Shown here in pieces: positions 16,479-57,045 of a stretch of DNA of 64,000 nt. The stretch is taken from NCBI GenBank assembly GCA_002441245.1, contig DJVP01000009.1, positions 12,817 to 76,816 of the forward strand, written 5' to 3'. The position numbers and the translations under genes were made by a program. Source of the DNA: Candidatus Omnitrophica bacterium UBA6253. GTDB taxonomy: Bacteria > Omnitrophota > Gorgyraeia > Gygaellales > Profunditerraquicolaceae. The notes beneath the pieces were generated by a model. It searched no databases and was not told where the DNA came from. It was given only the letters and a program-made list of their open reading frames with translations. Position 1 is the first letter of the stretch, and each line of letters begins with the position of its first letter.

Positions 16479-17073
16479 CGGTTAACTTTCTGATGTTATT
16501 TTGAGTGGTTAATTTATCGGGTTGCACTTTGACAATCTTAATCCTTTTAGGCTCAAGCCTGGCAAGCTTAAGATACCCCTTCCTTACCATTTCATGATAT
16601 TTAAAAGAGCGCTGTTCAATGCGGTCTTTGCAGCTATGGCGATGCTCAAGCCCCTTCCTTACCGGCAAGTCCAGGAAAAGAGTAAGATCCGGCTTTATTC
16701 CCAAAGTTGCGAATTTACCGATATATTTAATCATGCCTATATCTACCCCTAAACCAAACCCCTGATAGGCAATAGTAGAATCCAGGAAGCGGTCGCAGAT
16801 GACAATCTTGCCGGCGTTTAACGCAGGCTGAATAATATCCCTTACTACCTGGGCGCGGGCAGCCATATAAAGCAGGGTTTCCGCCTCAGGGGATATCTTG
16901 CTTTCAGGATTAAGTAAAATCTCCCTTATCTTCTCGCTTAATTTAACCCCTCCGGGCTCACGCAGATATATTACTCTTAAGCCTTTGGATTTTAGGTAAC
17001 GATAAAGCATCTCTGATTGAGTACTCTTACCGCAGCCCTCAGAACCTTCAAATGAGATAAATTTGCTTTTCAT
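16468..17073 (-). CDS. tmk: Thymidylate kinase
   Basis: FISFEGSEGCGKST P-loop and LREPGG motif. Confidence 0.85.
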   Translation of the reverse strand: MKSKFISFEGSEGCGKSTQSEMLYRYLKSKGLRVIYLREPGGVKLSEKIREILLNPESKISPEAETLLYMAARAQVVRDIIQPALNAGKIVICDRFLDSTIAYQGFGLGVDIGMIKYIGKFATLGIKPDLTLFLDLPVRKGLEHRHSCKDRIEQRSFKYHEMVRKGYLKLARLEPKRIKIVKVQPDKLTTQNNIRKLTDAL

Positions 17074-17150
17074 GCCAATATCTTAAGCGGGTACTATCTT
17101 GGTCTGTTTCTCGCCGCACTCCGCGGCTCGAATTCAACCCAAGCCACCCG
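17074..17150. repeat. Degenerate member of the GC-rich intergenic hairpin repeat family (gccaat...gcggg, tcgccgc-actcc-gcggc).
   Basis: Shares the hairpin-1 module and the GCCAAT loop motif with the elements at 25.1 and 31.6 kb. Confidence 0.35.
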
Positions 17151-18593
17151 CTATAACTTTTTTCTCCAGGTTGTTTTCCCATCTTTAGTATCTTCTAAAA
17201 TTATACCCTGCCCTTCTAAATTCTTCCTGATTTTGTCAGCCAAAACATAATCTTTGGCTTGTTTGGCGTTTGTTCTATCTATAATTCTTGCCTCAATCTC
17301 ATCCTGACCAATTTCTGTTACTTCATGGTTATTTTCAAATACAAAACCAAAAACATTTTTTCCCAAATCCCTAATTACACCCTCTGCTTCATTAATTATC
17401 TGGACATATTCATCACTGCCAGCTCCCGAATCAATAAATTTATTAGTATCGCTAACTAACCCAAAAAGACTAGCCAAGGCATCAGGAGTATTAAAATTAT
17501 CATCCATTGCCTCAATAAAATTATTCTTGTTCTTCTCAATGAAATCTGCGGCCTTTCTTATCCCGCTTATGCAAGATTTCCTTGCCTTCTGGGTATTATG
17601 AAAAAGCATTTCAAACCTCTGCGTCGCCTTATAAGCATCGTCTAATTTTCTCTCTGTAAAATCCATAGGATTAGAATAATGTGTCTGTAGATATAAGATC
17701 TTTAAGGCATCGACCGGATACTTACTTAATACATCGTTTATAGTTATAAAATTACCCAGCGACTTGGACATCTTCTGGCCGTTGATAGTAAGCAGGCCAT
17801 GGTGTATCCAGTAGCGGGCGAATTTCTTGCCTGCGCCCTCGGACTGGGCTATTTCATTTTCATGATGCGGGAAAATAAGGTCAAGGCCGCCGCCGTGAAT
17901 GTCAAATTCATCTCCTAAAATATCCGAGCTCATTACAGAGCACTCAATATGCCAACCCGGCCTCCCCTTTCCCCAGGGGCTATCCCAGGCAGGCTCTCCG
18001 GCTTTGGCGGATTTCCATAAAGCGAAATCAAGCGGGTCTTTCTTTTTCTCGCCAAGGGCAACCCTTGCCCCTGATTCCATTTTTCCTATCGCTTGATTGG
18101 ATAATTTTCCGTAATCCCTGGCTTTCTTAATATCAAAATATACGTCCCCTTCGGAAATATAAGCTGTATCCCTGCCAATCAAATCTTGAATAAATTTAAT
18201 CATCTTGGGGATATAATCGCTCGCCTTGGGCTCAACAATTCCATTCTCCTCTATGCCTAAGTTATTCAATGCATCATGGTAAGCCGAAAGGTACTTATCC
18301 GCCACTTTCTTAAAACTCGTGTTTAAATCTTCACCTGGCAATTCTTCCTTTGCCTTATTGATAATCTTATCATCAACATCAGTAACGTTGCGGACAAATG
18401 TAACCTCATAATCTTTATAGACTAGATAGCGCTTGATAACATCAAATATATACGCACTCCGTGCATGCCCGATATGCGGCTGGTCATAAACCGTAGGCCC
18501 ACAAACGTACATCTTGATCTCTTTCGGCTTTAGGGGAACAAGTTCTTCTTTTTTCCTTGAAAGGGAATTATATATAAAAATAGGCATGGACAA
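17151..18593 (-). CDS. cysS: Cysteinyl-tRNA synthetase
   Basis: HIGH motif (PHIGHARS) and KMSKS motif; 480 aa. Confidence 0.85.
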   Translation of the reverse strand: MSMPIFIYNSLSRKKEELVPLKPKEIKMYVCGPTVYDQPHIGHARSAYIFDVIKRYLVYKDYEVTFVRNVTDVDDKIINKAKEELPGEDLNTSFKKVADKYLSAYHDALNNLGIEENGIVEPKASDYIPKMIKFIQDLIGRDTAYISEGDVYFDIKKARDYGKLSNQAIGKMESGARVALGEKKKDPLDFALWKSAKAGEPAWDSPWGKGRPGWHIECSVMSSDILGDEFDIHGGGLDLIFPHHENEIAQSEGAGKKFARYWIHHGLLTINGQKMSKSLGNFITINDVLSKYPVDALKILYLQTHYSNPMDFTERKLDDAYKATQRFEMLFHNTQKARKSCISGIRKAADFIEKNKNNFIEAMDDNFNTPDALASLFGLVSDTNKFIDSGAGSDEYVQIINEAEGVIRDLGKNVFGFVFENNHEVTEIGQDEIEARIIDRTNAKQAKDYVLADKIRKNLEGQGIILEDTKDGKTTWRKKL

Positions 18594-18660
18594 GCACCTT
18601 ATAGCTTTTGTCTTGCGTAATCCCCGTGAGCGTCAGCGAACTACTAACGGGAAAAACATT

Positions 18661-19341
18661 CTATTTCTTCTCTAAATCCTTAACTCTATCCTGCAGTTCT
18701 TCAATTGTCTGCATGATCGGATCCAGTATACGCGCATGGTCTAAGCTTACATCCATCTTCTTACCGTCCTGCTTGGTAATCCTCCCCGGTACACCCACTA
18801 CCGTGGAATTCGCCGGCACATCTTTAACCACTACCGCATTTGCGCCAATATACGAATTATCTCCAATAGTAATATTGCCTAAAACTTTTGCCCCGGCACC
18901 GATAACAACATTATTACCAATGGTTGGGTGGCGTTTTCCTTTAACAATCCCTGTGCCCCCTAAGGTAGCCCCCTGATAAAGCAGGACATCATCCCCGATA
19001 ATCGTTGTTTCTCCGATAACCACGCCCATACCATGGTCAACAAAGAAACGCTTGCCAATCCTGGCTCCCGGGTGAATCTCGATCCCCGTTACAAGGCGTG
19101 CCAGCTGTGATAATGCCCGGGCAAGAAAAAATAAATGTACCCGATACAATGCATTGGCAATACGATAATAGATCAAGGCGTGCAGCCCCTGATAAAGCAG
19201 GATTATCTCTAAGAAACTTTTTGCCGCGGGGTCTCTTTTCTGCGCCGCCCTGATATCCGAATAGAAAAATATAGAAATAAGCGCAAGCTTAACCGCAACA
19301 AGTATTGCCAAGATTATTATTATATTTATAGCGCAAACCAT
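18661..19341 (-). CDS. cysE: Serine O-acetyltransferase
   Basis: Left-handed beta-helix hexapeptide repeats; N-terminal SAT helical region. Confidence 0.75.
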
Positions 19342-19363
19342 ATTACCTCCCGCATATCCTTGA

Positions 19364-19843
19364 CTAATCCTTAACTAAAGAAGCTAGCGCGTAACAGGAA
19401 ATTGCTTCATTATTGCCTACAGATCCTAAGCCTTCGTTTGTTTTTGCCTTTATGTTCAGGATATCTTCCTGAATCTTCATCAAGGCGCAAAGTTTTTGTT
19501 TTATCTCTTTCTTAAAAGGCGTGAGCGCCGGCTCCTGGGCAATAATTACAGCGTCAAGGTTATTAATCTTATAGCCATTACTATCTACAAATCCTTTAAC
19601 TGTCTTAAGCAGCGAGCCGCTGTCGATCCCCTTATATTTAGGATCTGTATCGGGAAAATACTCTCCGATATCCCCTAACGCCAAAGCTCCCAGCAAGGCA
19701 TCGCAAAGCGCATGGATTAACACATCTCCATCAGAATGCCCCAAGAGGCCTTTATTATAAGGCACTTCCACTCCGCCTAAAAGTAACGGCCTGCCTGCAA
19801 CCAGACGATGAATATCATAACCTATGCCGGTTTTATACTGCAT
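19364..19843 (-). CDS. ispF: 2-C-methyl-D-erythritol 2,4-cyclodiphosphate synthase
   Basis: IGYDIHRL...GHSDGDV...HA..DA motif set. Confidence 0.85.
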
Positions 19844-20519
19844 GGGACTTCCTTTTAATAATTAACCCCGCGACCAATAAATCTTCGCACGTAGTAATCT
19901 TGATATTACTATAATCACCTTCAACTATTTTTACCCTTTTTCCTAATTTCTCGACTAAAGAGGCATCATCGGTAACATCATCCCGGGAGTACTTTTTATA
20001 TGCCTCAAGAAGAAAGTTTTTCTTAAATACTTGTGGAGTCTGCGCCTCCCAGAGCTTACCCCTATCCAGGGTCTCGTTAATTATGCCACCCTGCAGGCAA
20101 GACTTTATTGTCGCCTTTGGCTTTACTGCCAGTATAGCTGAGCCGCTCTTTTTTGCCGCTTGAATAACTTTTGTAATAAACCTGCTATCAACAAACGGCC
20201 TGGCAGAATCATGGATTAATACCCAATCGCTGTCTTTGCTAACTGCCCTAAGCCCATTATAAACTGAATCCTGCCTGCGCCTGCCGCCTAAAACAAAAAC
20301 TTTTATTTTCTTAAAAGAATGCCTCTTTATAGCCTTAATTATTTTACCTTGATTAGCTAAGCTAAGCACCACAATAATCTCGCCTATACCCGGGTGCTTG
20401 TTTAAAGTATCCAGAGAATGAACTACCGCCGGTTTACTGCCTATTCTTACCAAAGGTTTAGGAACTGCGGCATTAAGCCGCCTGCCTTTTCCTGCCGCCA
20501 GGACAATCGCGCTAAGCAT
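19833..20519 (-). CDS. ispD: 2-C-methyl-D-erythritol 4-phosphate cytidylyltransferase
   Basis: IVLAAGKGRRL and HDSARPF motifs; it overlaps ispF (translationally coupled ispDF pair). Confidence 0.85.
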   Translation of the reverse strand: MLSAIVLAAGKGRRLNAAVPKPLVRIGSKPAVVHSLDTLNKHPGIGEIIVVLSLANQGKIIKAIKRHSFKKIKVFVLGGRRRQDSVYNGLRAVSKDSDWVLIHDSARPFVDSRFITKVIQAAKKSGSAILAVKPKATIKSCLQGGIINETLDRGKLWEAQTPQVFKKNFLLEAYKKYSRDDVTDDASLVEKLGKRVKIVEGDYSNIKITTCEDLLVAGLIIKRKSHAV

Positions 20520-21499
20520 TATTTATCAATTTTAGTAAAAATCATCCTACCGGCCTGAGTCTGCAGGACTGAAGTCACCACGGCCTTTACATCCTGGCCG
20601 ATCAACCGACGCGCATCCTCAACTACAACCATTGTCCCGTCATCAAGATACCCCACTGCCTGATTATGCTCCTTACCCTCCTTAATCAGTTTGATATGCA
20701 TCTCCTCGCCGGGAAAGACTACGGGTTTTAAGGCATTGGCTAATTCATTAATATTTAAAACCTTAATTCCCTGGATACTGGCTACGCGGTTTAAATTAAA
20801 ATCTACGGTAAGGATTTTGGCCTCAAGCAGCTTGGCCAACATAACTAATTTTGCGTCAACTTCCGAGGTTTCAGAAAAATCCTGCTCGTGAATAGTTATG
20901 TCCATTCCTGATTCTTTCTGAATAGTATTAAGTATCTCTAACCCACGCCGGCCCCTCTGGCGTTTAATCGGGTCAGTAGAATCGGCAATCTGCTGTAATT
21001 CCCTAAGCACAAACTTGGGGATGATAACTTTCCCCCCTAAGAAACGTGTCTTGCAAATATCAACAATCCGGCCGTCAATAATAACGCTGGTATCAAGAAG
21101 AATTACATCCCCGGACTGGTCCTGCCGGCGCAGACGCACATAAGGAATAATAAGATTAAACTCATCTTTGCCACGCAAAGCCACAACCACCCCAAGATAA
21201 CAAAAAGCTAAAGTCAAGGTCACCCTGATCATGGAAAGAGTAGCAGGATCAGTATAAAAAAGGCTGAATGCATCTCCTGCAAGTTTTGCCATAATCAAAC
21301 CCAAGATCAAACCAAATACAGCACTAGAGAGACCGTTTACTGAAACCTTGCGCAAACCTGCTTCCAGAATAATCAATACGAATGTTATAAGCCCACCGAT
21401 TATCATACCTATAAAGCCAGCCCCATTTGAAGCTGCTGTCTGATATCCGATAACCATGCCGCTCAATATAAACAAAAGCCGTACTAATAATAAATTCAT
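20519..21499 (-). CDS. yacL: YacL-like membrane protein with PIN and TRAM domains
   Basis: N-terminal TM helices, a central PIN domain and a C-terminal TRAM domain. Confidence 0.65.
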
Positions 21500-21607
21500 T
21501 TTTTTGCCTCCTTACCCGTAAGAGTACACGACGCGGAAGCGTCGCATTTGTTTCTCAAATAAAACAATGTGCCGGCCACTTCTTTCGAGCCGGGTGTTAG
21601 CCCATTC
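21500..21607. repeat. GC-rich multi-hairpin intergenic repeat (REP-like family member)
   Basis: Hairpins gacgc-ggaa-gcgtc and tgccggcc...gccgggtg, followed by the ttagc motif that is shared with the 25.1 kb element. Confidence 0.5.
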
Positions 21608-23008
21608 CTATAAATGCGAAGTGCCCTGCTGCTTAACAGATGAGCCCAAGACAATATCTAAGGCTTCTTTTAAAGTAGTAACGGGAATAATCTCCATATC
21701 TGATTTATCAAATTTTAATGTTTTACAGCTATTCTTAGGTAATATGCAATGCTTAAACCCTAGCTTTTCTGCTTCATTAATACGCGTAAGCACCTGAGAA
21801 ATACTCCTGATCTCTCCGGATAGCCCAACCTCGCCTAAAACCACGGCTTGCGGCATAACCACCTGCTCCCGAAAGCTGGAAGTAATCACTGCACAGACCG
21901 CTAAATCCGCTGCCGGATCCTCTATTTTTATTCCACCTGCCACATTAATAAATATATCTTCCGCTTCAAGGGCCAACCCTAAGCGTTTTTCTAAGACTGC
22001 TACCAATAAAGACAGGCGGTTAAAATCAAACCCTTGCGCCCTCCTCCTGGCATAGCCAAAACTACTTCTTGAAACCAAAGATTGTATCTCTACCAAAAGA
22101 GGCCGCGTTCCCTCCAATATAGAGGTAACAATTGACCCGGAAACATTGTTGGGCCTCTCAGAAAGAAAAATCTCTGAAGGATTTTTTACTTCTTTCAATC
22201 CTTCCGGCCCCATTTCAAATACCCCGATTTCATTGGTTGAACCAAACCTGTTCTTTACTGCCCGTAATATCCTGTATATCGCGAAACGATCGCCCTCAAA
22301 ATACAGCACCGTATCAACGATATGCTCTAAGACGCGCGGGCCGGCCAATGTACCTTCTTTTGTAACATGGCCGATAATGAAAATTGATGTGCCGGTAGTC
22401 TTGGCCAACTGCGTAAGGATCCCCGCACATTCCCTTACCTGGCTTACACTTCCAGCTGAAGAGCTGATCGAAGAATCAAAAATAACCTGTATAGAATCAA
22501 TCACTACTACCTGGGGCTTGAGCTTCTTAATGTATTCAACAACTAAAGATAAATCCGTTTGATTTACAATATACAAATTGTCTGACCCGGATTCACCTAA
22601 ACGCTTTGCGCGCAGCTTAGTCTGGACTACAGATTCTTCGCCGCTTACGTAAAGCACCCCTATACCCTGTTTAGTCAGATGATTTGAAACCTGCAGGGAA
22701 ATCGTGGATTTTCCTACCCCCGGATCTCCTCCAATTAGAATCACTGACCCCTTGACGATCCCGCCGCCTAAAACCCGGTCCAACTCACGAATGTTGGTCC
22801 TTAACCTATCCTCATCCCTGGCTACTACATCTTTTAGGAGTACCGGCCCATCTTTATACAGAGAAACCCTGTCCTTGCTTCCGGAAGAAGGGGCGATATA
22901 ATCCTCTTCGCTAAAAGAATTCCAGCTATTGCAATCTGGGCACCTGCCTAGCCATTTTGGAGACTGATAGCCGCAACTGGCGCAACTAAATATCGATTTG
23001 GTTTTCAT
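21608..23008 (-). CDS. radA: DNA repair protein RadA
   Basis: N-terminal C4 zinc finger CASCGYQSPKWLGRCPDC, RecA-like Walker A motif GDPGVGKST, and a Lon-like C-terminal domain. Confidence 0.85.
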   Translation of the reverse strand: MKTKSIFSCASCGYQSPKWLGRCPDCNSWNSFSEEDYIAPSSGSKDRVSLYKDGPVLLKDVVARDEDRLRTNIRELDRVLGGGIVKGSVILIGGDPGVGKSTISLQVSNHLTKQGIGVLYVSGEESVVQTKLRAKRLGESGSDNLYIVNQTDLSLVVEYIKKLKPQVVVIDSIQVIFDSSISSSAGSVSQVRECAGILTQLAKTTGTSIFIIGHVTKEGTLAGPRVLEHIVDTVLYFEGDRFAIYRILRAVKNRFGSTNEIGVFEMGPEGLKEVKNPSEIFLSERPNNVSGSIVTSILEGTRPLLVEIQSLVSRSSFGYARRRAQGFDFNRLSLLVAVLEKRLGLALEAEDIFINVAGGIKIEDPAADLAVCAVITSSFREQVVMPQAVVLGEVGLSGEIRSISQVLTRINEAEKLGFKHCILPKNSCKTLKFDKSDMEIIPVTTLKEALDIVLGSSVKQQGTSHL

Positions 23009-23013
23009 TAATA

Positions 23014-24399
23014 TTAAAGAGCCCCAAAAACCTCTTTCTTGGTAATAAAGGCGCTGGCTGTATCTTTGGTAATTAATCCGCGCCTGAATAAATCCATTAA
23101 AGAACTATCCATTGTATGCATACCAAATTCCGCTCCTGATTCCAAATAACTGTAAATCTGTTCGGTACGCGCCTTTCTAATAAGGTTCCTTATTGCCGGG
23201 GTAAACATCAATACCTCTGTTGCCAAAACCCTTCCTTTTCCATCGGCACGCGGAAGAAGATACTGGCAAACAATACACTCCAAAGACGTAGCTAACTGAA
23301 TGCGTATCTGCATCTGCTGCTCTACGGGGAAGATATCAATCAGCCTATTAATGCATTCAATGCTACTGGTAGTATGCAGAGTAGAAAATACCAATTGGCC
23401 TTCCTCCGCGGCAGTAATCGCCTGAGAAATAGAATCCAAATCCCTCATCTCACCCATTAAGACAATATCGGCATCCTGACGCAAAGTACTTCTAATGGCA
23501 TCAGAAAAAGACAGGGTATCTAAACCAACATCCCTCTGGCAAATTAAGCTGTTTTTACTTGTATATATATATTCGATTGGGTTTTCAATACTGATGATTA
23601 CGCTCTCTCTTCTCCTGTTTATGCTTTCAATAATTGAGGCCAAAGTAGTGGATTTACCGCTATCTACCGGGCCAGAAACAATAACCAAGCCATTCTTCTT
23701 GTTCACGACATTATGCAGGATAGATGGCAGCCCCAATTCATCCAATGATCTTACTTCACTGCCGATAATCTTAGCCACAATCGCAAGATGCCCTTTATCA
23801 AAGAAAACATTCATTCTAAAACGCCGGTTTTCCTGAGGCAAGGTGTAAGCGAAATCCAGCTCAAGATCTTTATAGAGAGCGGATTTTTGTTTTTCGTTTA
23901 TAATGGAAAAAACAATTTTTTCTATGTCCTCTTCCGAGATAGGCACCACATCCATATGCAAAACCTTGCCATCCACCCTGCAAACAGGCATACATCCAAC
24001 TGCTAAATGCACGCTAGTTGCTTCTCTTCTGATTGCGCTGGTCAAAAGTACATCCAGGTCTACTTTCTCAACATATGTGCCTATTTTTTCCTGGCCGTTT
24101 TCGTCTATCTCATCGAAGGAAATTCCGTAAACATATTTATCATCACTGGATTTCTGCGACCGCACTACCTTGCCGATAAATTTTATCGGGGCTTCTAAAA
24201 ACGGAAGGGGCATTTCACCCTGTATAGCTGTGCCTATTTTCATTACATCCTTACTTTCAATTGCAAAACCATTTACACTGATATCCCGGACCTCGGCGCC
24301 AAATACCGCATTAACATTATCGCCTATAAAAGAATACTTGAGCAAATAATCACATTCTTTTCTTCTGGTCGATCTTTTATTCATGAAATTCTTAAACAT
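23014..24399 (-). CDS. pilT: PilZ-domain fused to a PilT/PilU-family type IV pilus retraction ATPase
   Basis: N-terminal RSTRR (RxxxR) and DISVNG (DxSxxG) c-di-GMP-binding PilZ motifs. C-terminal Walker A GPVDSGKST and PilT-type ATPase core. Confidence 0.7.
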   Translation of the reverse strand: MFKNFMNKRSTRRKECDYLLKYSFIGDNVNAVFGAEVRDISVNGFAIESKDVMKIGTAIQGEMPLPFLEAPIKFIGKVVRSQKSSDDKYVYGISFDEIDENGQEKIGTYVEKVDLDVLLTSAIRREATSVHLAVGCMPVCRVDGKVLHMDVVPISEEDIEKIVFSIINEKQKSALYKDLELDFAYTLPQENRRFRMNVFFDKGHLAIVAKIIGSEVRSLDELGLPSILHNVVNKKNGLVIVSGPVDSGKSTTLASIIESINRRRESVIISIENPIEYIYTSKNSLICQRDVGLDTLSFSDAIRSTLRQDADIVLMGEMRDLDSISQAITAAEEGQLVFSTLHTTSSIECINRLIDIFPVEQQMQIRIQLATSLECIVCQYLLPRADGKGRVLATEVLMFTPAIRNLIRKARTEQIYSYLESGAEFGMHTMDSSLMDLFRRGLITKDTASAFITKKEVFGAL

Positions 24400-24421
24400 T
24401 AAAACCTCCTAATTAAAACAG

Positions 24422-25036
24422 CTACTTTCTCTCTTTAGTCTTAATAAACAGTTTCCAGGGGTTTTTACGTATATCGACAACCAGGGCTTCCAGTTGATCA
24501 TAAAGTGTGTCATCATAGATAAGTTTACCTAATGACCCCTCTTTGTTTTTTATCTTAGAAATGCCGTCATCCAAATTGCGCAAAATATTCTCAGCATTCC
24601 TGAATAACTGATGTATGGGTAAAGGATCGATCCCAACCAGGCATTCATTGGCCTTAAGAAAATAAGCATAATCATTACCCGGCATTATCTCCACGTATTT
24701 TTCACCCAATAGCCCCAGGGTATTAACCCAAACAGTAGAATCGACAGGGATTTTAATGTTATTCCTGATCCAAACGCCCAAATTTACATTCGAACGATTT
24801 TCCTCTGGGATAAACTCCAGTTTGATTTTCTTTACTTCCCCCACATCCACTCCGGCGAAACGCACCGGTGCGCCAACCTTTATTCCATTTACAAAATTAA
24901 AGCTCAAATTTATATGATAGCCTGAGCTCCAGGTTTTAAAACCACCGATCGATAGAATAAAAATAATCAGGATCACCAGTCCTATAAAGACAAAAATACC
25001 CACCTTTAACTCTAATTTAGTTTTACCAAATATCAT
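24422..25036 (-). CDS. mlaD: MCE-domain protein MlaD
   Basis: N-terminal TM anchor followed by an MCE domain; lies downstream of mlaE and mlaF. Confidence 0.75.
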   Translation of the reverse strand: MIFGKTKLELKVGIFVFIGLVILIIFILSIGGFKTWSSGYHINLSFNFVNGIKVGAPVRFAGVDVGEVKKIKLEFIPEENRSNVNLGVWIRNNIKIPVDSTVWVNTLGLLGEKYVEIMPGNDYAYFLKANECLVGIDPLPIHQLFRNAENILRNLDDGISKIKNKEGSLGKLIYDDTLYDQLEALVVDIRKNPWKLFIKTKERK

Positions 25037-25185
25037 CTAAACCTCCTTGTACAGAAAGTACACACCGGCCAATCCAATTAGGCCGGGTGTTAGCTTACAA
25101 AAACACACCCGCGCAACTTTCGCCACTAGGCGAACAATGGCCAAATTCCTATCTGGGCCAGGTGTCGCGCTAAGCGCGGCGTGGT
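25037..25185. repeat. GC-rich multi-hairpin intergenic repeat (REP-like; two tandem copies of the module)
   Basis: Contains acacccgcgcaa, hairpins ttcgcc-acta-ggcgaa, tggcc...ggcca, gcgc-taag-cgcg and caccggcc...ggccgggtg, and the ttagc motif. It is homologous to 31620-31719, with compensatory changes. Confidence 0.55.
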
Positions 25186-25950
25186 TTATTTAAAATTATC
25201 AACCGCCTCGGTTATTGGCCCCTTAGCAAGCCCATTGATAAACTGGTGCACAACAGTATTCTTGGACTCCCGGATTTCTTTAGGAGTACCTTCCAAGATT
25301 ATTTTACCTTTATACATCATCGCAATCTTATCGGCAATATGATAGGCGCTTTTCATATCATGAGTAACAACGATTGAAGTAACTTTTAATTTATCATGTA
25401 AAGAACGAATGAGCTCATTAATACTATCTGCAGCTATTGGATCTATGCCTGTAGTCGGTTCATCATAAAGTATGATCTCCGGCCGTATACAGATTGCCCG
25501 TGCCAGGGCCACGCGCTTTTTCATACCCCCGCTTAATTCCGAAGGCATAAGATTTCCGATGCCCCCCAGGCCTACCAATGCCAAAGATTCTTCCACTCTT
25601 TCCGATAATTCTTTTTGGTTGATATGCGTATGCTCGATAAGGCTAAAACCTACATTATCGGCAACGTTCATAGAATCAAAAAGGGCTCCCCCCTGAAACA
25701 CCATGCTGATTTTAGAACGCAAGGCGCTTAATTCCAACTCATTTAAAGCAGCCACTTCTTTTTGATTTACCAAGACCTTGCCCCGGTCAGGTTTTAAAAG
25801 TCCTACAATGTGCTTAAGTAAAACGGATTTCCCGCATCCGCTTCTTCCGATAATTACACAGGTTTGTCCTTTGCTGATACTCAAGTTTAAATCATTCAAT
25901 ACCGGTGAGTTATTGAATTTTTTATTTAGTTTCTGGATCTCAATAATCAT
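25186..25950 (-). CDS. mlaF: Mla ABC transporter ATP-binding protein
   Basis: Walker A motif GRSGCGKS and ABC signature LSGGMKKR. Confidence 0.75.
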   Translation of the reverse strand: MIIEIQKLNKKFNNSPVLNDLNLSISKGQTCVIIGRSGCGKSVLLKHIVGLLKPDRGKVLVNQKEVAALNELELSALRSKISMVFQGGALFDSMNVADNVGFSLIEHTHINQKELSERVEESLALVGLGGIGNLMPSELSGGMKKRVALARAICIRPEIILYDEPTTGIDPIAADSINELIRSLHDKLKVTSIVVTHDMKSAYHIADKIAMMYKGKIILEGTPKEIRESKNTVVHQFINGLAKGPITEAVDNFK

Positions 25951-26736
25951 TTAAGGAAAAATAAAATAGAATAAAGCGGTAAAGAAGCAATCCGCGGCAA
26001 TAATCATAATAAAAGTAAAGACTACCGAACGCGTTGTTGCCCTGCCTACCCCCGCTGCCCCACCTTCAACGTTAAAACCTTCATAGCAACTTATTAGCGC
26101 AATAAGCATCCCAAAAATCCAGGATTTGAATAAACCGGTGAATAAATCTTTATAAAGTAATGAAGAAAAGGTAACATGCATATACATGCTGCTGGTAATG
26201 CCTAATTTTATTGTGCAGATAAAATAGCTCCCCAGGATACCGATAATATTAGCATACAAAGTTAAAATAGGAAGCATAACTCCTAAAGCGACAAAACGCG
26301 GAACCACTAAATATTTTACAGGATTAGTAGCCAAGGTCTCCAAGGCATCAATCTGCTCCGTTACCTGCATGGAGCCTAACTCCGCGGTGTTTGATGCCCC
26401 GACCCTGCCCGCTACTATCAAGGCAGTGATTACGGGTCCGAGTTCACGCACGATAGATAAAGCTACAAGGCTGGCAATATACAACTCTGAACCAATACGC
26501 TGCATGAAATAAGCGGTCTGTAAAGCAAAGATAAAACCGATAAATAAGGCGACTAACGAAACAATCGGGAAGCTGTCATATCCTGCTTTCTTAGCCTGTT
26601 CAATTATGCGGCCATACTTATAGGGCGGCTTAAATGTCAAATACACAGTCTGCCCGGCCAGGTTAGTTAAGCCGCCAAAAAAGTACATAAAAGAAAGTAC
26701 CTTGCGGCCTAAATCCATAAAAAATAAAGTAAACAT
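25951..26736 (-). CDS. mlaE: Mla ABC transporter permease
   Basis: MlaE/YrbE-type permease TM pattern; adjacent to mlaF and mlaD. Confidence 0.75.
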   Translation of the reverse strand: MFTLFFMDLGRKVLSFMYFFGGLTNLAGQTVYLTFKPPYKYGRIIEQAKKAGYDSFPIVSLVALFIGFIFALQTAYFMQRIGSELYIASLVALSIVRELGPVITALIVAGRVGASNTAELGSMQVTEQIDALETLATNPVKYLVVPRFVALGVMLPILTLYANIIGILGSYFICTIKLGITSSMYMHVTFSSLLYKDLFTGLFKSWIFGMLIALISCYEGFNVEGGAAGVGRATTRSVVFTFIMIIAADCFFTALFYFIFP

Positions 26737-29156
26737 TATTCGAAAATAAGCTCTTCGTTCCTACGCGTTACCTTGATTGAAGAACCCTCCTTGTATTTCT
26801 TGGAAATAATCTCCTGAGCCAAAGAATCCTCCAGGTATCTCTGAATAGTCCTTTTCAATGGCCGTGCGCCAAAAACAGGGTCAAATCCTTTTTCGATTAA
26901 GAAATCTTTGGCCTCCCGGCTCACCTCTAAAGATATCTTCTGATCCTTTAACCTTTCGACTACATAACCGATCTCAATATCAATGATCCGCACCAGGTCC
27001 TCTTTAACCAACTGCCGAAAAACTATAATATCATCAATCCGGTTTAAGAACTCAGGTTTAAAAGCATGCTTGACTGCCTCAAGTAGTTTTTCTTTCATAT
27101 CCTGATACGTAACCTCTTCTTTTTGGGTCTTAAAACCAAGGGAGCCGGTCTTGCGGATCAACTCTGCGCCAATGTTAGAGGTCATAATAATAATTGTATT
27201 CTTAAAATCCACCTTACGGCCAAAGCTATCCGTGAGCCGGCCTTCTTCAAAAACCTGCAACAGTAAATTAAAAACATCAGGGTGGGCTTTTTCAATCTCA
27301 TCCAAAAGTATGACCGCATAAGGCCTGCGCCGCACGCGCTCAGTAAGCTGACCGCCCTCTTCATATCCTACATATCCGGGAGGTGCGCCAATGAGCCTTG
27401 AAAGATTAAATTTCTCCATATATTCCGACATATCCAGCTGCAACAAGGCATCTTCGTCGCCAAACATAAACTCCGCTAATGCCCGAGCCAAGAGAGTTTT
27501 TCCTACGCCGGTAGGACCTAAAAATACGAATGAACCTATAGGCCGCCTTGGATCTTTAATCCCGGCGCGCGAACGCCTCACCGCATGCGCAATAGCTTCA
27601 ATAGCTTCATTCTGGCCGACTACACGTTTATGCAATTCTTCCTCGATCTTAAGCAGCTTTTCGCTTTCTTTTTCTTCCAGCCTGAAAGCAGGAATTCCCG
27701 TCCATTGGGCCACAATCTTGGCGATATCCTCAGCTGTAACCTCCGGGCGCATCTTATCTTTTGCCTGCCCCCACTCTTTATTCAATTTTTCCAGTTCCTG
27801 GCGGGCAATACGCTCTTGGTCCCTTAAAGAAGCAGCCTTTTCAAAATCCTGGCTCTTGATGTAAGACTCTTTTTCTTTCCTTAATGACTCAACATTGGCC
27901 TCCAGTTTCTTGATCTCCGGAGGGACAATCAAAACATTCAAGCGGGCATGTGAACCTGCCTCATCGATCAGATCAATGGCCTTGTCCGGCATGAACCTTC
28001 CGGAGATATAACGGTCAGACAATCTTGCCGCAGCTTCTAAGGCCTCATCTCTGAAAGAGACCCGGTGATGCGCTTCATATTTATCGCGCAGGCCTTTTAA
28101 AATCTCAACGGTCTGTTCAACCGTCGGAGGCTCAACCATGATCGTCTGAAACCTGCGTTCTAAAGCAGCGTCCTTTTCGATATATTTACGGTATTCATCC
28201 AGGGTAGTTGCTCCGATACACTGCATCTCCCCGCGGGAAAGCGCCGGTTTCATAATATTTGAAGCGTCAATTGCGCCTTCGGCAGCCCCTGCCCCTACCA
28301 AGGTATGCAATTCGTCAATAAAAATAATGACATCCTGCGAACGCTTGATCTCCTCCATGATCGCCTTGATTCTTTCCTCAAACTGGCCACGGTATTTTGT
28401 CCCGGCGACCATTAACGCTAAATCTAAAACTACGATGCGCTTGCCCCTTAAAACCTCGGGTATATTCCCAAGTATAATCAACTGGGCCAAGCCTTCAACA
28501 ATAGCAGTCTTGCCTACCCCTGCCTCGCCCAAAAGCACAGGATTATTCTTAGTGCGCCGGCTTAAAATCTGAACTACCCGCTCAATTTCATGCACACGGT
28601 CTATTACCGGATCTAATTTATTCTCACGGGCCAAAGCTGTAAGATCCCTGCCAAAGGCATCTAAAGCTGGAGTTTTTGTTTTTGACTGAGCTCCGCCACC
28701 CTGATTCATTCCCGGCAAGGCAGAACCTAAAAGCCCCATCACTTCATTACGCACAGAGTTTAAATCCATGCCTAAATTTAACAACACCTGAGAAGCAATG
28801 CCTTCGCCTTCACGGATAAGCCCGAGCAAAAGATGCTCGGTACCGATATAATTATGCCCCAAGGAACGGGCCTCTTCAGCCGCCAGTTCCAGGGCTTTTT
28901 TGGCTCGCGGGGTAAACGGAATATCTCCGATGATCTGGGTAGTCGGACCGGGTTGTACCAGTTTCTCTATCTCCAGCCTGATATTCTCAAGCGAAACATC
29001 AAGCTTTTGCAATACCGCGGCAGCCACGCCTTCACCCTCCCGTATCAAACCAAGTAGTATATGTTCAGTACCGATATAGTCGTGGTTAAAACGCCTGGCC
29101 TCTTCCTTTGCTAAAATAATTACCTTTCTTGCCCTCTCTGTAAAACGATTAAACAT
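26736..29156 (-). CDS. clpC: ATP-dependent Clp protease ATP-binding subunit ClpC
   Basis: Double Clp_N repeats, two AAA+ modules and a UVR motif. It lies downstream of mcsA and mcsB. Confidence 0.85.
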
Positions 29157-29169
29157 GATTTCTCCTCAA

Positions 29170-30222
29170 TTATAATAGGTTTAGTTTCTTGCGAATAAGC
29201 TGTGCCCTTTTTAAATCCCTTTCATCAGACGAAAGTTTCTTGTTTTCCAGTTTCTGCAAATGAGCTGGCTGGGTAATGATAAAGAGTTCATTGATTGTGC
29301 GGCGGTCAATATCTTTAATCATACCCAAATCGCTGCCCAGCCTAACCATAGACAACAATTCAATTGTCTCCTGGCTGGTAATAATGCGGGCGCTTTTCAA
29401 AATACCCAGAGAACGATTAATCCTATCCTCTAAAACCTCTTTGTTTTTGGAGAGCAGTATCTGGCGCGCCTGGGTCTCCTGCTCGATGATCTGGCGGATA
29501 AGCCCGTTAATGTTTTCAATTATCTCGTCTTCTCCATGCCCTAATGAAACCTGGTTGGAAATTTGAAAGAAGTTCCCGCTGGCCTGCGTACCCTCCCCAT
29601 AAAGGCCGCGGGTAGTAAAGCTTAATTTGGCAATCGCCGCCAATACCCGTTCAATCTGCCTGCTCATTACTAAAGCAGGCAAGTGGAGCATGACCGAACC
29701 GCGCATACCGGTTCCTGTATTGGTAGGGCAGGCAGTAAGGTAACCAAAATCATCTAAATACGCATAATCCAAAAGTCCGGCCAGGGCATCATCCAGGCGG
29801 TTAATAATATCCCTGGCTTCAAAAAGATTAAACCCTGACTGCATCAATTGGATACGCAGGTGATCTTCCTCGTTAATCATCACCGCGATTATCTCTTCAT
29901 CATCAACCAACAATGCCTTATAATCCGTCTTCTGAGAATGCTCAATTGACATAAGATGCCTCTCCACCAAGAACTGCTTGTCAATTGCATCTAAATCCGC
30001 CAGTTTAAAAAGCGTGGAGCTCTTAAGCATATCTATTTTTAAGGCGGCATCACTGATCTTTGCCAAAACCTCCTCAAGCTGTATTTTACTGGCCCAGTGC
30101 GGAAAAGGATATTTGTTAAGATTCCTGGCCAGGCGTATTCTGCTTGAAATAACAATATCAGAGTTTGGACCTGTGCCTTTTAGCCATTCACTGGTATGAT
30201 TTAATAAATCATCAATCTTCAT
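29170..30222 (-). CDS. mcsB: Protein-arginine kinase McsB
   Basis: ATP:guanido phosphotransferase catalytic domain (CPTNTGTGMR). Confidence 0.8.
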   Translation of the reverse strand: MKIDDLLNHTSEWLKGTGPNSDIVISSRIRLARNLNKYPFPHWASKIQLEEVLAKISDAALKIDMLKSSTLFKLADLDAIDKQFLVERHLMSIEHSQKTDYKALLVDDEEIIAVMINEEDHLRIQLMQSGFNLFEARDIINRLDDALAGLLDYAYLDDFGYLTACPTNTGTGMRGSVMLHLPALVMSRQIERVLAAIAKLSFTTRGLYGEGTQASGNFFQISNQVSLGHGEDEIIENINGLIRQIIEQETQARQILLSKNKEVLEDRINRSLGILKSARIITSQETIELLSMVRLGSDLGMIKDIDRRTINELFIITQPAHLQKLENKKLSSDERDLKRAQLIRKKLNLL

Positions 30223-30223
30223 T

Positions 30224-30748
30224 TTAACTTTCTTTTACTCCGCTCCCCTGCTCTGACGAGAGTTTCTTGATTTGATCGCGCAAGCGCGCTGCCTCTTCAA
30301 AATCCTCCCTCTGAATTGCTTTCTGCATCCCTGCTTTCAGACCTTCCAGATCCATCTTTTTCCTTCCGGGCTTTGAGATGACCTTCTCTTTAATAAGCGG
30401 CGATTTACCAACATGCTGATTTGAACCATGGATTCTTTTTAACAAAGGAGCCAGGTATTTACGGAAGGCATTATAGCAACCACCGCAACCCAATCTGCCA
30501 ATCTTCTTGAAATCCGCGTAGGTTAAATTGCAATTAGGGCATTTCACAGCAACATTTTCTTCATCTTTATCCGGTTTCTCAAAATCAGCCATACCCGCCA
30601 AAAGGTCGCTTAAGCCAAACTGCTGCTCCATAGCTGCGCTCTTATTCCTTGCGCAATCCTCGCACAGATGCAGTTCATTCATCTGCTCATCAATAATTTC
30701 AGTAAGATGCACAGTAGCCGGATTTTTTTTACAAATATCACAAAGCAT
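30224..30748 (-). CDS. mcsA: McsA (zinc-finger/UVR-domain activator of McsB)
   Basis: Repeated CxxC zinc-finger pairs and a C-terminal UVR motif (EEAARLRDQIKKL). Confidence 0.7.
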   Translation of the reverse strand: MLCDICKKNPATVHLTEIIDEQMNELHLCEDCARNKSAAMEQQFGLSDLLAGMADFEKPDKDEENVAVKCPNCNLTYADFKKIGRLGCGGCYNAFRKYLAPLLKRIHGSNQHVGKSPLIKEKVISKPGRKKMDLEGLKAGMQKAIQREDFEEAARLRDQIKKLSSEQGSGVKES

Positions 30749-30749
30749 A

Positions 30750-31619
30750 TTAATATTTTATTCCTTCTTTAAGGGTAAGCTGCCTAAACTTCTTCATTAA
30801 CACCAAAGTAAGCTTTCCGGGTTTGCCTGTCCCGATAACCCTGCCGTCCACCTTAACAACAGGAATAATCTCTGCGGCTGTACCGGTCAAGAAACATTCA
30901 TCGGAAATATAAACTTCATGCCTGGTAATCACATGCTCATGCGTTGGGATCTTGCTCTTGCGGGCAATCTCCAAAACTGAATCCCGGGTAATCCCGCGTA
31001 AAGTCCCCATGCACTGCGGAGGAGTATAAAAATGCCCATTCTTAACCACAAAGATATTATCGCCGGTGCACTCGGCCACATAACCTAATGAATCAAGCAT
31101 AATTGCTTCATCAGAGCCGCAATTAGCTGCCTCGATTTTAGCCAGAATATTGTTCAGATAGTTCAAAGACTTGATCTGAGGATTAAGCGCCTCAGGTAAA
31201 TTACGCACCGTAGGCACAGTAACAATACTTAACCCTTCACGATAAAGTTTTTCCGGATATAAGGCAATCTTATCCGCGATGATAATTATTGTAGCCCCCT
31301 TATAGCACTTGCGCACATCAAGCCCCAAGTCTCCTTCTCCGCGCGTAACTATAAGTCGGATATAAGCATTATCCAATTTATTGGCTTTAACCGTCTGCAG
31401 CACCGCCCTGATCAACTGTTCCCTGGTTAAAGGAATTTTTAACATAATGCTTTGCGCAGACTCGAAAAGCCGGTCGATATGCTCTTTTAATTTAAACACA
31501 CGGCGCCCATACGAACGGATCCCCTCAAAAACACCGTCGCCATAAAGCAGGCCGTGGTCGAAAACTGAAATCTTCGCGCTCCCTTTTTCATAGAATTTAC
31601 CGTTGATATAAACCTTCAT
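30750..31619 (-). CDS. ilvE: Branched-chain amino acid aminotransferase (class IV PLP enzyme). The true start is MKVYING at 31619; the longer ORF reads into the intergenic repeat.
   Basis: Class IV aminotransferase motifs; an AAGGGGGG Shine-Dalgarno sequence sits upstream of the ATG at 31619. Confidence 0.75.
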   Translation of the reverse strand: MKVYINGKFYEKGSAKISVFDHGLLYGDGVFEGIRSYGRRVFKLKEHIDRLFESAQSIMLKIPLTREQLIRAVLQTVKANKLDNAYIRLIVTRGEGDLGLDVRKCYKGATIIIIADKIALYPEKLYREGLSIVTVPTVRNLPEALNPQIKSLNYLNNILAKIEAANCGSDEAIMLDSLGYVAECTGDNIFVVKNGHFYTPPQCMGTLRGITRDSVLEIARKSKIPTHEHVITRHEVYISDECFLTGTAAEIIPVVKVDGRVIGTGKPGKLTLVLMKKFRQLTLKEGIKY

Positions 31620-31719
31620 CGTAGCCCCCCTTGTGTACGAACATACACCCGCGCAATCGCCGCAGAAAGCGGCGCACCCGCCAATCATTTATGGCGGGGT
31701 GACTGACTAACGCGGGGCG
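31620..31719. repeat. GC-rich multi-hairpin intergenic repeat (REP-like family member)
   Basis: Contains acacccgcgcaa, cgccgc-agaaa-gcggcg, cccgcc...ggcggg and aacgc-ggg-gcgtt. It is collinear with the 25.1 kb element, and stem pairing is preserved by compensatory substitutions. Confidence 0.55.
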
Positions 31720-32415
31720 TTAGTTTAAAATAACTCCGTCTTTCAAATGTATAATTTTTCCCGCTGCCCTTGCAATATCTTTATCATGAGTAACCATTAA
31801 AACAGTAATCTTTTCCCTTTGATTAAGCTCTGCAAGCAACTGCAAGATAAGCTTGCCGTTTTCCGAGTCCAGATTGCCGGTAGGCTCATCGCAAAGTAAA
31901 AGTTGCGGGCGGTTAATTAATGCCCGGCAGATAGCTACTCTCTGCTGTTCTCCTCCTGATAACGCCTGCGGCCTATGAGCAAGCCTTTGGGATAATCCCA
32001 GCCTTTCCAGGAGCTGACGGGCAAACTTTAAGTCTTTCTTCCTCCCCCACCAGCTTCTTAAAATACTCGGCAATAAAACATTCTCCAGGGCAGTCAACTC
32101 CGGTAGAAGATGAAAAAATTGAAAAACAAAACCAACTTTGCGGTTACGAAAAGTTGAACGAGCATTTTCATCTAAACCATAAATATCCACGCCTTCAAAA
32201 TAAACCGAACCCTCTGTAGGATTATCCAATCCTCCCAGAATATGTAAAAGCGTAGACTTGCCTGCTCCCGAAGGTCCCTGAATTGCCAAGAATTCTCCCG
32301 CAGTAACAGAAAAATTTACATCTTTTAATATTTCAAGATTACCCGCGTTGTCACGGTAACTTTTACAAATTCCATTAACTTTAACTATACTCTTATTCAT
32401 GCCGTACTGCCTCAC
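31720..32415 (-). CDS. lolD: Lipoprotein-releasing system ATP-binding protein LolD
   Basis: ABC ATPase (GPSGAGKST, LSGGEQQR); lies downstream of a MacB/FtsX-type permease. Confidence 0.7.
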   Translation of the reverse strand: MRQYGMNKSIVKVNGICKSYRDNAGNLEILKDVNFSVTAGEFLAIQGPSGAGKSTLLHILGGLDNPTEGSVYFEGVDIYGLDENARSTFRNRKVGFVFQFFHLLPELTALENVLLPSILRSWWGRKKDLKFARQLLERLGLSQRLAHRPQALSGGEQQRVAICRALINRPQLLLCDEPTGNLDSENGKLILQLLAELNQREKITVLMVTHDKDIARAAGKIIHLKDGVILN

Positions 32416-37760: not shown

Positions 37761-37842
37761 AGAGGTTCCTTTTACCGCTATACTCCCGATTTGCCAGACC
37801 AGCCAGAGGGATTACACGAAAAACAGTGTACGTATACTTATT

Positions 37843-46076: not shown

Positions 46077-46107
46077 ATGCCCTCCGTAATTAAATTATAC
46101 CCCTGAT

Positions 46108-46286
46108 TAACTGCGAGTTAACTCAACAATCTTTTTTTCTATCAATATTTTGTGTTTTTGCTCTTCAGTAATCAAAAGCGAAAGCAGTTCTGTCAGGTTT
46201 GGATGTTGCGACAATATCTCCTGGTATGTCTCTATCGCATCCTCTTCTTTTGATAAGGCTATTTTTAAAACTTCAAGATCGACCAT
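46108..46286 (-). CDS. Small (59 aa) helical protein with ferritin/rubrerythrin-like E...ExxH residues; below the track's 60-aa cutoff
   Basis: Strong Shine-Dalgarno sequence AAGGAGG 6 nt before the ATG. Sequence MVDLEVLKIALSKEEDAIETYQEIL...EEQKHKILIE. A CATGTA-TATC-TACATG palindrome lies just upstream. Confidence 0.4.
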
Positions 46287-46425
46287 AGTTAACCTCCTTT
46301 AAGGCATGTATATCTACATGTTTATTGGTTAAATTATAACATAAAGATAGTTTAAAAGAATCAGTTTATATTATATAAAACCGCACAGTAATAATTACTT
46401 GTTTTTAGGGGAATTTTATAACGGA

Positions 46426-47517: not shown

Positions 47518-47742
47518 AGGATTGCTTTCTGCGGACTAAACCCTGCTTTAAAGAATTAACTGGTGTGCAACTTTCTGCGGAAATAAAAACCATAAAGGTT
47601 AATTGTCTTGCCCTTTACGGCTACAAGATTTACTAAACTTTATATTATCTCTTTGATTTGATTATACCACGTATTTGAAAAACTGCTGGGATTATTTTAT
47701 AATTCATACACCAACGCAACTTGCTCAACAATTATAGAATAT

Positions 47743-48342: not shown

Positions 48343-48400
48343 ATTAGGTTCCCCCTGATTAGCAAAACAGATGAGTCCTGCGTAAATACTGGCCCCGCTA

Positions 48401-56685: not shown

Positions 56686-56700
56686 TAAGTAAAAGGGTTA

Positions 56701-56934: not shown

Positions 56935-57045
56935 CTTTCATACTCCTTATTGCCTAATACATACAACATCTTTCTAATCTGCTATAATTATATCTATTAT
57001 CTCAGAACATCCGTATTTTTTCAATGGGTAAGTTCCTTTATTTTA

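Follow-up and report, generated by a model that had tools for sequence, protein, structure and literature searches.

The 64,000-nt window analysed here is a stretch of a metagenome-assembled genome (MAG) of Omnitrophota, and three of its operon junctions carry GC-rich palindromic inserts. These inserts are members of a dispersed family of hairpin modules that is locked in orientation to the neighbouring gene, abuts the Shine-Dalgarno (SD) sequence of that gene, covaries in its stems and forms nested structures; its members are gained and lost at operon junctions and are conserved once present. The elements are probably a lineage-specific, dispersed and self-folding repeat module of Omnitrophota, similar to the repetitive extragenic palindromic (REP) elements but with an architecture of its own, which acts in cis in the mRNA as a barrier or insulator. 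Six units are found in the 64 kb, at mlaF/mlaD (25037-25185), lolD/ilvE (31620-31719) and radA/yacL (21500-21607). The minus strand holds nearly all genes of the window, and the unit coordinates given below mostly refer to that strand, which is also called the gene strand.

The anatomy of the module was worked out by comparison with units in related species, whose loci are designated by L numbers. On the gene strand, a unit consists of hairpin A followed without any spacer by hairpin B, and then by the SD and the start codon. Hairpin A is 33-38 nt long and has 9-11 bp, with the consensus RCA-CCC(C)-SSSS / loop U(U/A)A..KGWAUU / SSSS-GGG-UGU. Its outer stem CACCC/GGGUG is conserved, the inner stem of 4-5 bp is variable, and the 5' arm contains one extra bulged C. 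Hairpin B has 5-6 bp and the loop UUGU or AGGU, as in UGCCC-UUGU-GGGCA, and brings the unit to about 50 nt. The 3' end of the unit is found 0-1 nt from the SD of the next gene, which has the form (A)AGGAG(G), and the 5' end a few nt past the upstream stop codon or 10-20 nt past a promoter-like site. Units may be single (L012, L025), joined in tandem by UAAC (L029, L014, and in the window mlaD-A after mlaD-B), or nested, with a complete inner unit placed within the loop of an outer hairpin A (mlaD-B and ilvE in the window; L027, L042, L081, and L011). Three-way junctions are formed at mlaD and ilvE because units are nested inside loops. An earlier sequence-only reading of this DNA had described collinear modules shared between the gaps. 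The modules are real, but they are in fact nested whole units, and the order A-B-SD-start as well as the orientation with the gene strand had been missed. The module it gave as acacccgcgcaa is the 3' arm of the outer hairpin A, its first and second hairpins are the inner hairpin B and the inner hairpin A, respectively, its gttagc is the UAAC linker together with a 5' arm, and its GTACA mini-palindrome beside the start codon is hairpin B.

A covariance model, R1, was built from ten simple units, nine from relatives and mlaD-A from the window, and the search set comprised the window and the mlaD loci of 80 related species (1.19 Mb). R1 gave 41 matches, found in the window and in 24 of the 80 related loci; the gene strand carries 40 of them. 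The covariance-model search that had been proposed as a check came out in favour of a family, with numerous further copies here and in the metagenomes described below. When the 64-kb window was searched with R1 without filters, the E-values, which are rough for a home-made model, were 2e-11 for the seed mlaD-A, 6.5e-4 for the inner ilvE unit, and 0.036 for both the inner mlaD-B unit and the yacL unit. It had also been claimed that the stems differ between copies while pairing is kept, and this is borne out by the alignments. In the 41 matches 94.3% of the cells are paired, and eight of the ten pairs have changed on both sides (one pair is GC in 21 copies and CG in 14); in 150 further matches the corresponding values are 98.3% and nine of ten. 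No shuffle attains the observed values, and slid controls are 24-65% paired (28-53% for the 41). The alignments were fitted to R1, which favours pairing, and matched inner stems of various kinds can also be seen directly in the raw sequences (GGCGC/GCGCC, GACGC/GCGTC, AACGC/GCGTT, GGCC/GGCC); the inner stems GCGC, GGCC, GGCG, GACG, and AACG each have a fitting partner. On the gene strand G-U combinations outnumber A-C combinations, by 23:8 and 44:10.

The comparison with Rfam 15, which had likewise been proposed, gave no match at the gathering score on the window, none inside the flagged gaps when E-values up to 10 were accepted over 16900-32000, and nothing in eight related loci. Since further copies are numerous and no Rfam family matches, the suggestion of a repeat family stands. 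The units are too short and gapped for a direct-repeat finder, which missed the family when run on the whole window. No description of such Omnitrophota repeats was found in Rfam 15 or in the searchable literature.

The occupied junctions of the window have exact words in common, a 12-mer TTGCGCGGGTGT shared by the mlaD and ilvE gaps and a 13-mer GCTAACACCCGGC shared by the mlaD and yacL gaps. The hairpins listed in the sequence-only reading are all present, and folding of the gene-strand RNA produces one and the same three-way junction at mlaD and at ilvE. In both the distal mlaD gap (z = -3.4) and the ilvE gap (z = -2.0) a closing stem with ...UUGCGCG is placed around two hairpins. At mlaD, this closing stem is the outer hairpin A of mlaD-B (25104..25183, minus strand), with the arms CACGCCGCGC (5', 25174-25183) and GCGCGGGUGUG (3', 25104-25114). 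It begins 2 nt after the mlaF stop codon and has the fold (((((((...hp...hp.))))))); R1 matches the same nested layout in L081, L051, L013, and L035. The inner hairpin A (25137..25163, minus), ACACCUGGCC-CAGAUAGGAAUU-UGGCCAUUGU, is covered by the R1 match at 25132-25167 and shares 90% identity with its orthologous counterpart in L027. The inner hairpin B (25119..25134, minus) is UUCGCC-UAGU-GGCGAA and has equivalents in the arrays of L011, L013, and L027. A weakened hairpin B, GUUU-UUGU-AAGC, is found at 25093..25104 (minus), where the relatives L011 and L012 have GCUU-UUGU-AAGC. The tandem unit mlaD-A (25062..25092, minus) consists of the UAAC linker and a hairpin A, ACACCCGGCC-UAAUUGGAUU-GGCCGGUGU, with the bulged C. 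It scores 43.3 bits with R1, but is itself one of the ten seeds, and the opposite strand gives 9.6 bits; the unit is 94-100% identical in L011, L014, and L017. Its hairpin B, GUAC-UUUCU-GUAC (25049-25061), is followed by the SD AAGGAGG (25042-25048) and the start codon (25034-25036, minus). Two single-nucleotide polymorphisms (SNPs) separate the mlaD gap of the window from that of the same-species strains L002 and L004. One of these, U>G at window position 25143 in L002/L004, adds a C-G pair to the inner hairpin, and the other is located in a hairpin loop.

At ilvE, the outer hairpin A (31645..31720, minus) has a 5' arm, AACGCCCCGCGU, that shares the final base of the lolD stop codon, and a 3' arm, UUGCGCGGGUGU, and also forms a three-way junction. 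The inner hairpin A (31675..31701, minus) is CACCCCGCC-AUAAAUGAUU-GGCGGGUG, with an R1 match of 20.3 bits at 31672-31704, and the inner hairpin B (31658..31674, minus) is CGCCGC-UUUCU-GCGGCG. Next to the gene are hairpin B, GUGUA-UGUUCG-UACAC (31633-31648), and the SD AAGGGGGG (31625-31632, minus). The whole lolD/ilvE gap is 83% identical to that of L017, with a 52-nt core that is 100% identical. The true ilvE start codon is at 31617-31619, where the NCBIfam ilvE match starts, and the gap is accordingly 31620-31719, as had been stated earlier. The longer ilvE open reading frame (ORF) called by an ORF finder adds a false nonsense extension of 23 codons, MIGGCAAFCGDCAGVCSYTRGAT. The read-through peptide MIGGCAAFCGDCAGVCSY... 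had been given correctly, and the element is non-coding.

The radA/yacL gap is a decayed two-unit copy. Its hairpin A (21568..21597, minus), UAAC-ACCCGGC-UCGAAAGAAGUG-GCCGG-CACA, has lost the outer stem; it scores 14.9 bits with R1 and is 85% identical to the orthologous intact unit 2 of L016/L017. A remnant of the first unit, GGGCACUUCGCA-UUUAUAGGAAU-GGGC (21600..21626, minus), now encodes the last radA codons and the stop codon. It was aligned by eye with L013, L014, and L017, in which the radA stop codon is found inside the hairpin A loop. The 3' part of the gap (21507..21544, minus) contains an extra hairpin, CGACGC-UUCC-GCGUCG (21529-21544), then hairpin B, ACUC-UUAC-GGGU (21514-21525), the SD AAGGAGG (21507-21513), and the start codon (21497-21499, minus); the corresponding end in L017 reads ...GGUGUACCCUUCCGGGUAAGGAGG. 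Elsewhere in the window, an AT-rich gap at 47700-47725 (minus) contains AAGTTGCGTTGGTGTATG, which resembles a lone 3' arm of hairpin A, with 13 of 15 positions matching the ilvE copy, and may be a decayed remnant.

The position of the module relative to genes is best seen in metagenome contigs, which were searched with a pattern representing one stem subtype with a free loop, CCCCGCGCT-N6-13-TTGCGCGGGTR. At least 120 matches were obtained. About 20 of the matches listed fall in contigs with a GC content of 50% or more and are due to chance, and the 100 unique low-GC copies among the matches listed were analysed; it is to these that the metagenome counts given below refer. Hairpin B is present in 95 of them. 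An SD, a start codon, and an ORF follow within 80 nt downstream in 72, compared with 8 in the antisense control, and the distance from the hairpin to the start codon peaks sharply at 24-27 nt. The full A-B-SD-start layout, at 19-32 nt, is found in 59. Orientation was assigned by the SD and start codon; stop-to-stop ORFs are too noisy for this purpose and missed the 83-aa rpmB. A co-directional ORF ends beside the element in 53 copies, the median distance between its stop codon and the hairpin base being 5 nt; 44 of these stop codons are at most 15 nt away, and 12 are located in the element itself. The remaining copies follow AT-rich sequence, and several of these sequences read, by eye, as sigma-70-like promoters 10-20 nt upstream. 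The module is found ahead of more than 70 unrelated genes, many of which are highly expressed. Named by eye from their N-terminal sequences, they include dnaK, tuf, pgk, argH, eno, ssb, acpP, rpoZ, and the genes for ribosomal proteins S6, S8, S20, L6, L16, and L20.

When R1 was used on 592 kb of metagenome loci it gave 152 units, about 52 of them beyond the seeds. Long arrangements are seen in L190, where rsfS and argS on one strand, and rpmB on the opposite one, are preceded by arrays of at least eight units that run in the same direction as the gene concerned. These arrays (630-1020 and 1410-1690 on the plus strand, 5290-5560 on the minus strand) are 300-400 nt long and include three exact 47-nt tandem copies. 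In pgk and argH leaders (L104:475-560, L139:1316-1345, L152, L125, L154) hairpin B has the form UCCUCC-NNNN-GGAGGA; here the SD is the 3' arm of hairpin B and is therefore predicted to be sequestered. The viral contigs of IMG/VR contain no convincing copy according to the specific pattern, which gave one doubtful match. A looser pattern listed 120 viral contigs, of which 118 have at least 50% GC and were not inspected, and the two low-GC ones lack the family architecture.

The synteny from lysS to metG is kept across the 80 species, but the junctions vary. In most species the mlaF/mlaD junction is only 12-16 nt long, i.e., a stop codon, an SD, and a start codon. The family is present at 14 of 77 mlaF/mlaD junctions, 9 of 67 radA/yacL junctions, 5 of 47 lolD/ilvE junctions, and 2 of 56 junctions for mcsB/clpC as well as for ispF/cysE. 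An empty site reads GCAGCAAGGAGG and a filled one GCAGCAAGG[...]AAGGAGG. A comparison of L015, GCAGCAAGGAGGAAC, with L017, GCAGCAAGG[CGCCCC...GGGU]AAGGAGGC, displays a clean insertion right at the SD. Since the junctions are empty in most relatives and the insertion is clean, the element is not a leader belonging to mlaD, ilvE, or yacL. The possibility of a regulatory leader shared by these three genes, which had been raised earlier, also has to be abandoned when the module is found ahead of so many unrelated genes. It is hence very improbable that the elements are gene-specific leaders (riboswitches or attenuators) of mlaD, ilvE, and yacL, or intrinsic terminators between transcription units. 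The similar three-way junctions of the mlaD and ilvE copies, which have alternative pairings, could be read in this way, and the hairpin B variant GCUUUUGUAAGC gives a short U run after a GC stem; however, most copies lack a U tract, canonical U-tract terminators are found elsewhere in the window, and nothing in Rfam matches even at E = 10. The explanation is already contradicted by the distribution of the module, with more than 70 unrelated downstream genes and mostly empty orthologous junctions. It had been pointed out earlier that no element is a clean terminator on the minus strand, and a terminator scan agrees: it made one marginal minus-strand call, with a poor tail, in the ilvE unit (31666-31648), and the copies are mostly without U runs. 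The counts of the promoter and terminator scans equal the shuffle expectation.

Once present, the units are conserved. Between orthologous units the identity is 83-100%, extending to private loops and inner stems, and at the four-fold sites of the flanking genes it is 51-62%. The mlaD-A unit of the window agrees with L011 at 51 of 51 positions and with L017 at 48 of 51, and unit 2 of L016 agrees with that of L017 at 49 of 51. Among the listed metagenome copies, loop position -5 is a G in 95 of 100 and position -3 an A in 82 of 100, with scrambled neighbours; the search pattern had fixed only the first U and the last UU of the loop. This conservation reflects either purifying selection or gene conversion among copies, and selection is favoured because orthologous copies share private features. 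As to how the units are inserted, no consistent target-site duplication or terminal tag is found at the 100 metagenome sites. The arms could serve as terminal inverted repeats, and AAGG is present on both sides at radA/yacL; such AAGG flanks are absent at mlaF/mlaD and at most of the 100 metagenome sites. No transposase was noted in the loci examined, in which no systematic search was made.

Several unrelated palindromic families fill the same junctions in L020, L024, L030, L032, L038, L040, L046, L055, L058, L066, and L081. They are of the types GTAGGGGAGGTTTAAACCTCCCCTAC, CCCCCTCGCGGGAGCTCGGGG...GCCGGAGGCTGGGGAAAAA, and CCTGCCTGCCGGCAGGCAGG, and of a long AT-rich type, TTTAGGATTTCGAGTTT. In general, the operon junctions of this lineage are hot spots of palindromic insertion.

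For 57 copies, the effect of the module on the SD was calculated as the probability of an unpaired GGAG core. This is 0.235 in the native sequence, 0.115 after shuffling of the element (p = 7e-4), and 0.241 after its deletion. The self-contained fold thus leaves the C-rich insert invisible to the SD. This is consistent with a module that would be transcribed within the 5' untranslated region or the intercistronic mRNA and act in cis at the RNA level, its compact fold filling the space between cistrons and leaving the SD unoccluded. By analogy with REP and bacterial interspersed mosaic elements (BIME) in Escherichia coli operons, it would most likely be a barrier or insulator, through which the adjoining cistrons might be shielded from exonucleases and uncoupled from upstream translation.

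Several points weigh against a cis-acting barrier or insulator. The accessibility of the SD is no better than with the element deleted, meaning that the insert is harmless, not helpful, and an earlier accessibility test, whose 5-nt window took in one of the paired bases of hairpin B, found no difference from shuffles. Transcription of the module and any effects on mRNA and protein are inferred. The orientation could equally come from insertion at an asymmetric target, namely the SD itself, and inverted units do occur, if rarely (L040, and within the array of L138). The G-U excess on the gene strand comes mostly from one outer pair, and gene conversion among copies could also give the high identity of orthologues. 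The promoter-proximal copies begin 10-20 nt past the presumed transcription start, and the modules are for this reason not 5'-terminal protective hairpins. The data suggest about 100 units per carrier genome, but this figure is extrapolated from the 152 units in 592 kb and the six units in 64 kb and is not a count. Finally, the 300-400-nt arrays of L190 and the other palindromic families at the junctions look like selfish expansion.

The elements could indeed be purely selfish DNA palindromes, similar to REP/REPIN or to miniature inverted-repeat transposable elements (MITE), that are mobilised as single-stranded DNA hairpins by a transposase acting in trans, or that have spread by recombination. 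The RNA would then have no function, and selection would only remove copies that harm the neighbouring ribosome-binding site. We find this rather unlikely. It would explain the presence/absence polymorphism at orthologous junctions, the tandem and nested amplification into very long arrays, the company of unrelated palindromic families at the same junctions, the occasional inverted copies, and an element that is merely neutral for SD accessibility. It is more difficult to reconcile with orthologues that remain 83-100% identical, idiosyncratic loops and stems included, when synonymous sites are near saturation, or with the loop G conserved in 95% of the listed metagenome copies, the 40:1 orientation and the exact SD spacing. 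In MITE, terminal inverted repeats are combined with a target-site duplication whose length is fixed. At the 100 sites listed neither a consistent duplication nor a terminal tag is seen, and the loci examined, although not systematically searched, revealed no transposase.

Another explanation places the function in trans, with hairpin A as the binding site of a factor that controls the translation of more than 100 genes. The candidates would be a CsrA-like protein, recognising GGA in the loop and in the SD, or the 3' tail of 16S rRNA, which would pair with UAAGGA in the loop. Sequence is conserved beyond what pairing requires (CACCC/GGGUG, the bulged C, KGWAUU, and the loop G in 95% of the listed copies), the loop GG and the SD are separated by a constant distance of about 31 nt, a value in the range known for CsrA dimers, and the module precedes highly expressed housekeeping genes and seems to be under purifying selection. 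However, GGA is found in only 55 of the 100 listed loops and GG in 77, many loops being UUGUAU or CUGAAU, the inner nested units are far from any SD, and no copy with the family architecture is found in IMG/VR viral contigs, where the high-GC matches of the looser pattern were not inspected. The SD itself always supplies a GGA. With GGA in 55% of the loops, a CsrA-type reading is possible, not compelling, and we consider a trans factor of any kind doubtful. The same low probability is given to a broader version in which the module is a trans-recognised, lineage-specific expression signal, hairpin A on hairpin B docking a dedicated RNA-binding factor or the 30S subunit. In the latter case the loop UAAGGA might pair with the 16S 3' tail and tether ribosomes after upstream termination. 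If docking were to hold true, a single post-transcriptional regulon written by a repeat family would comprise over 100 genes, among them those for EF-Tu, DnaK, and ribosomal proteins.

Among the known systems that had been proposed, REP/BIME is the closest fit to the barrier module described here. REP elements are extragenic, short (14-40 nt in E. coli), palindromic stem-loops with a common consensus and many copies per genome, and in E. coli those located within 15 nt of a stop codon affect the upstream gene (PMC12306157). Apart from the copy number per genome, which is extrapolated here, these general traits are found in the present family, which consists of imperfect palindromes of about 35 nt with a family consensus and many dispersed copies, often in operons and with the upstream stop codon at most 15 nt away, presumably transcribed with the operon and sometimes combined into composite arrays. 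All units in the window are located between annotated genes, and in some copies the upstream gene takes its last codons or its stop codon from the 5' arm or the loop. In E. coli, REP hairpins protect upstream mRNA. While REP are found at 3' ends, the units described here are found 5' of genes and abut the SD at a fixed spacing. They further differ in having an obligatory second hairpin, B, and in nesting within loops to give three-way junctions, and the terminal GTAG/CGTC tag of REP is absent at the unit ends in the 100 aligned copies among the matches listed. REP are associated with a gene for a REP-associated tyrosine transposase (RAYT; IS200/IS605-like) flanked by inverted REPs; no RAYT was seen in the loci examined here, which were not searched systematically for one. 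BIME are clusters of REP in alternating orientation with defined linkers. Here, in contrast, the orientation is locked to the gene strand (40:1), and the clusters are direct, tandem or nested in one orientation, inverted units being only sporadic.

Other repeat families share some of these properties. The mycobacterial interspersed repetitive units (MIRU), which go back to work by Supply et al. in 1997, are reportedly direct repeats with small coupling ORFs and not covarying hairpins. The present units resemble them in being intercistronic in operons, oriented with the flanking genes, variable in tandem number, and extending from the upstream stop to the downstream start, but no general ORF runs through them, the in-frame read-through at ilvE being an isolated case. 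BOX of Streptococcus pneumoniae, ERIC, and Correia elements have been reported to affect mRNA stability depending on orientation. Like the present family, they are modular and intergenic with variable internal modules and a stable predicted RNA structure, and are co-transcribed, as the units here presumably are. They are, however, 100-150 nt or longer, occur in both orientations and are not tied to the SD, and Correia elements have terminal inverted repeats and insertion signatures. The ompA leader stem-loop and synthetic ribosome-binding-site insulators also place a strong hairpin just upstream of an exposed SD. These are single-gene features, whereas the units here form a repeat family, are not 5'-terminal, and would be stabilising by conjecture. 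Judged by its sequence features, the family is apparently a previously undescribed one that differs from REP/BIME in orientation, placement, the second hairpin, nesting, and the missing GTAG tag.

Two further elements of the window had been associated with the family and do not belong to it. The supposed degenerate copy at 17074-17150 between tmk and cysS gives no R1 match; it represents another conserved hairpin, specific to this locus, in its short form. It is a 77-nt hairpin, GCGGGUGGCUUGG...CCAAGAUAGUACCCGC (17074..17150, minus; fold z = -3.7), after the cysS stop codon. In relatives the cysS-associated hairpin, GCGGGUGGCUUGG...CCAAGACAGGACCCGC, is 70-290 nt long and in many of them follows the cysS stop codon (cysS/tmk); in some it is inverted in the cysE/cysS gap, and it occurs about once per locus (e.g., L075:16620-16830, L016:6550-6740, and, in reverse, L012:15006-15217). 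The longer forms, up to about 290 nt, have a central domain of about 100 nt. Their predicted shape is 6S-like, a candidate likeness only, and neither the short nor the long form matches Rfam. The second, a putative weak relative at 18594-18660 (minus), is not matched by R1 either. These 67 nt contain a hairpin UCCCCGU...ACGGGGA with the tail AAAAGCUAUAAGGUG, resemble only the cysE/cysS gap of L042, and may be a cysS leader. A hairpin of about 75 nt that does not occur in the window, CCCCGCACCUUCU...AGAAGGUGCGGGG, is found in the mlaD/radA gap (about 10615-10700 in locus coordinates) of L012, L019, L034, L040, L042, L043, L046, L051, and L054, where it ends at the radA GTG start. It contains an internal near-copy of its own 3' arm and looks like an alternative pairing in the radA leader.

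The gene names given earlier (tmk, cysS, a PIN/YacL-like gene, radA, mlaD, mlaF, mlaE, ilvE, and lolD) are right, and homologues carry the names Candidatus Omnitrophica or Omnitrophota. An identical MlaD protein is encoded on contigs of both GCA_028712745.1 and GCA_028718365.1, as well as on several metagenome contigs. The description of the genome as AT-rich is only mildly true, the overall GC content of the window being 41.5%, and 50-nt GC-rich stretches are frequent within genes. The four flagged gaps have 49-63% GC versus 29-39% in the AT-rich gaps of the window, which hold promoters and canonical U-tract terminators, and two further short gaps, 37761-37825 and 48343-48400, reach 48%. With the cut-off of 100 aa used for the gene map, small ORFs with their own SD remain within the "intergenic" gaps 46077-46425 and 56686-57045 (minus); one starts MVDLEVLKIALSKEEDAIETYQEIL... 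and the other MKISIGLTFPGTLQDESIICYLCKKFEISLNIIE..., and both are shorter than 100 aa. The window also contains a gene for a PilZ-domain ATPase of the PilT family at 23014-24399 (minus), between mlaD and radA; in nearly all of the 80 relatives mlaD is followed directly by radA.

Since Omnitrophota are uncultivated, sequence is the only handle on their gene expression. The family explains the variable intergenic lengths in these MAGs, and a model of it helps annotators to avoid false start codons such as that of the extended ilvE. It is also a candidate for a portable insulator of ribosome-binding sites. For the organisms themselves, the module represents either an unrecognised layer of mRNA control or a repeat family that has been moulded to do no harm where an operon is most sensitive.

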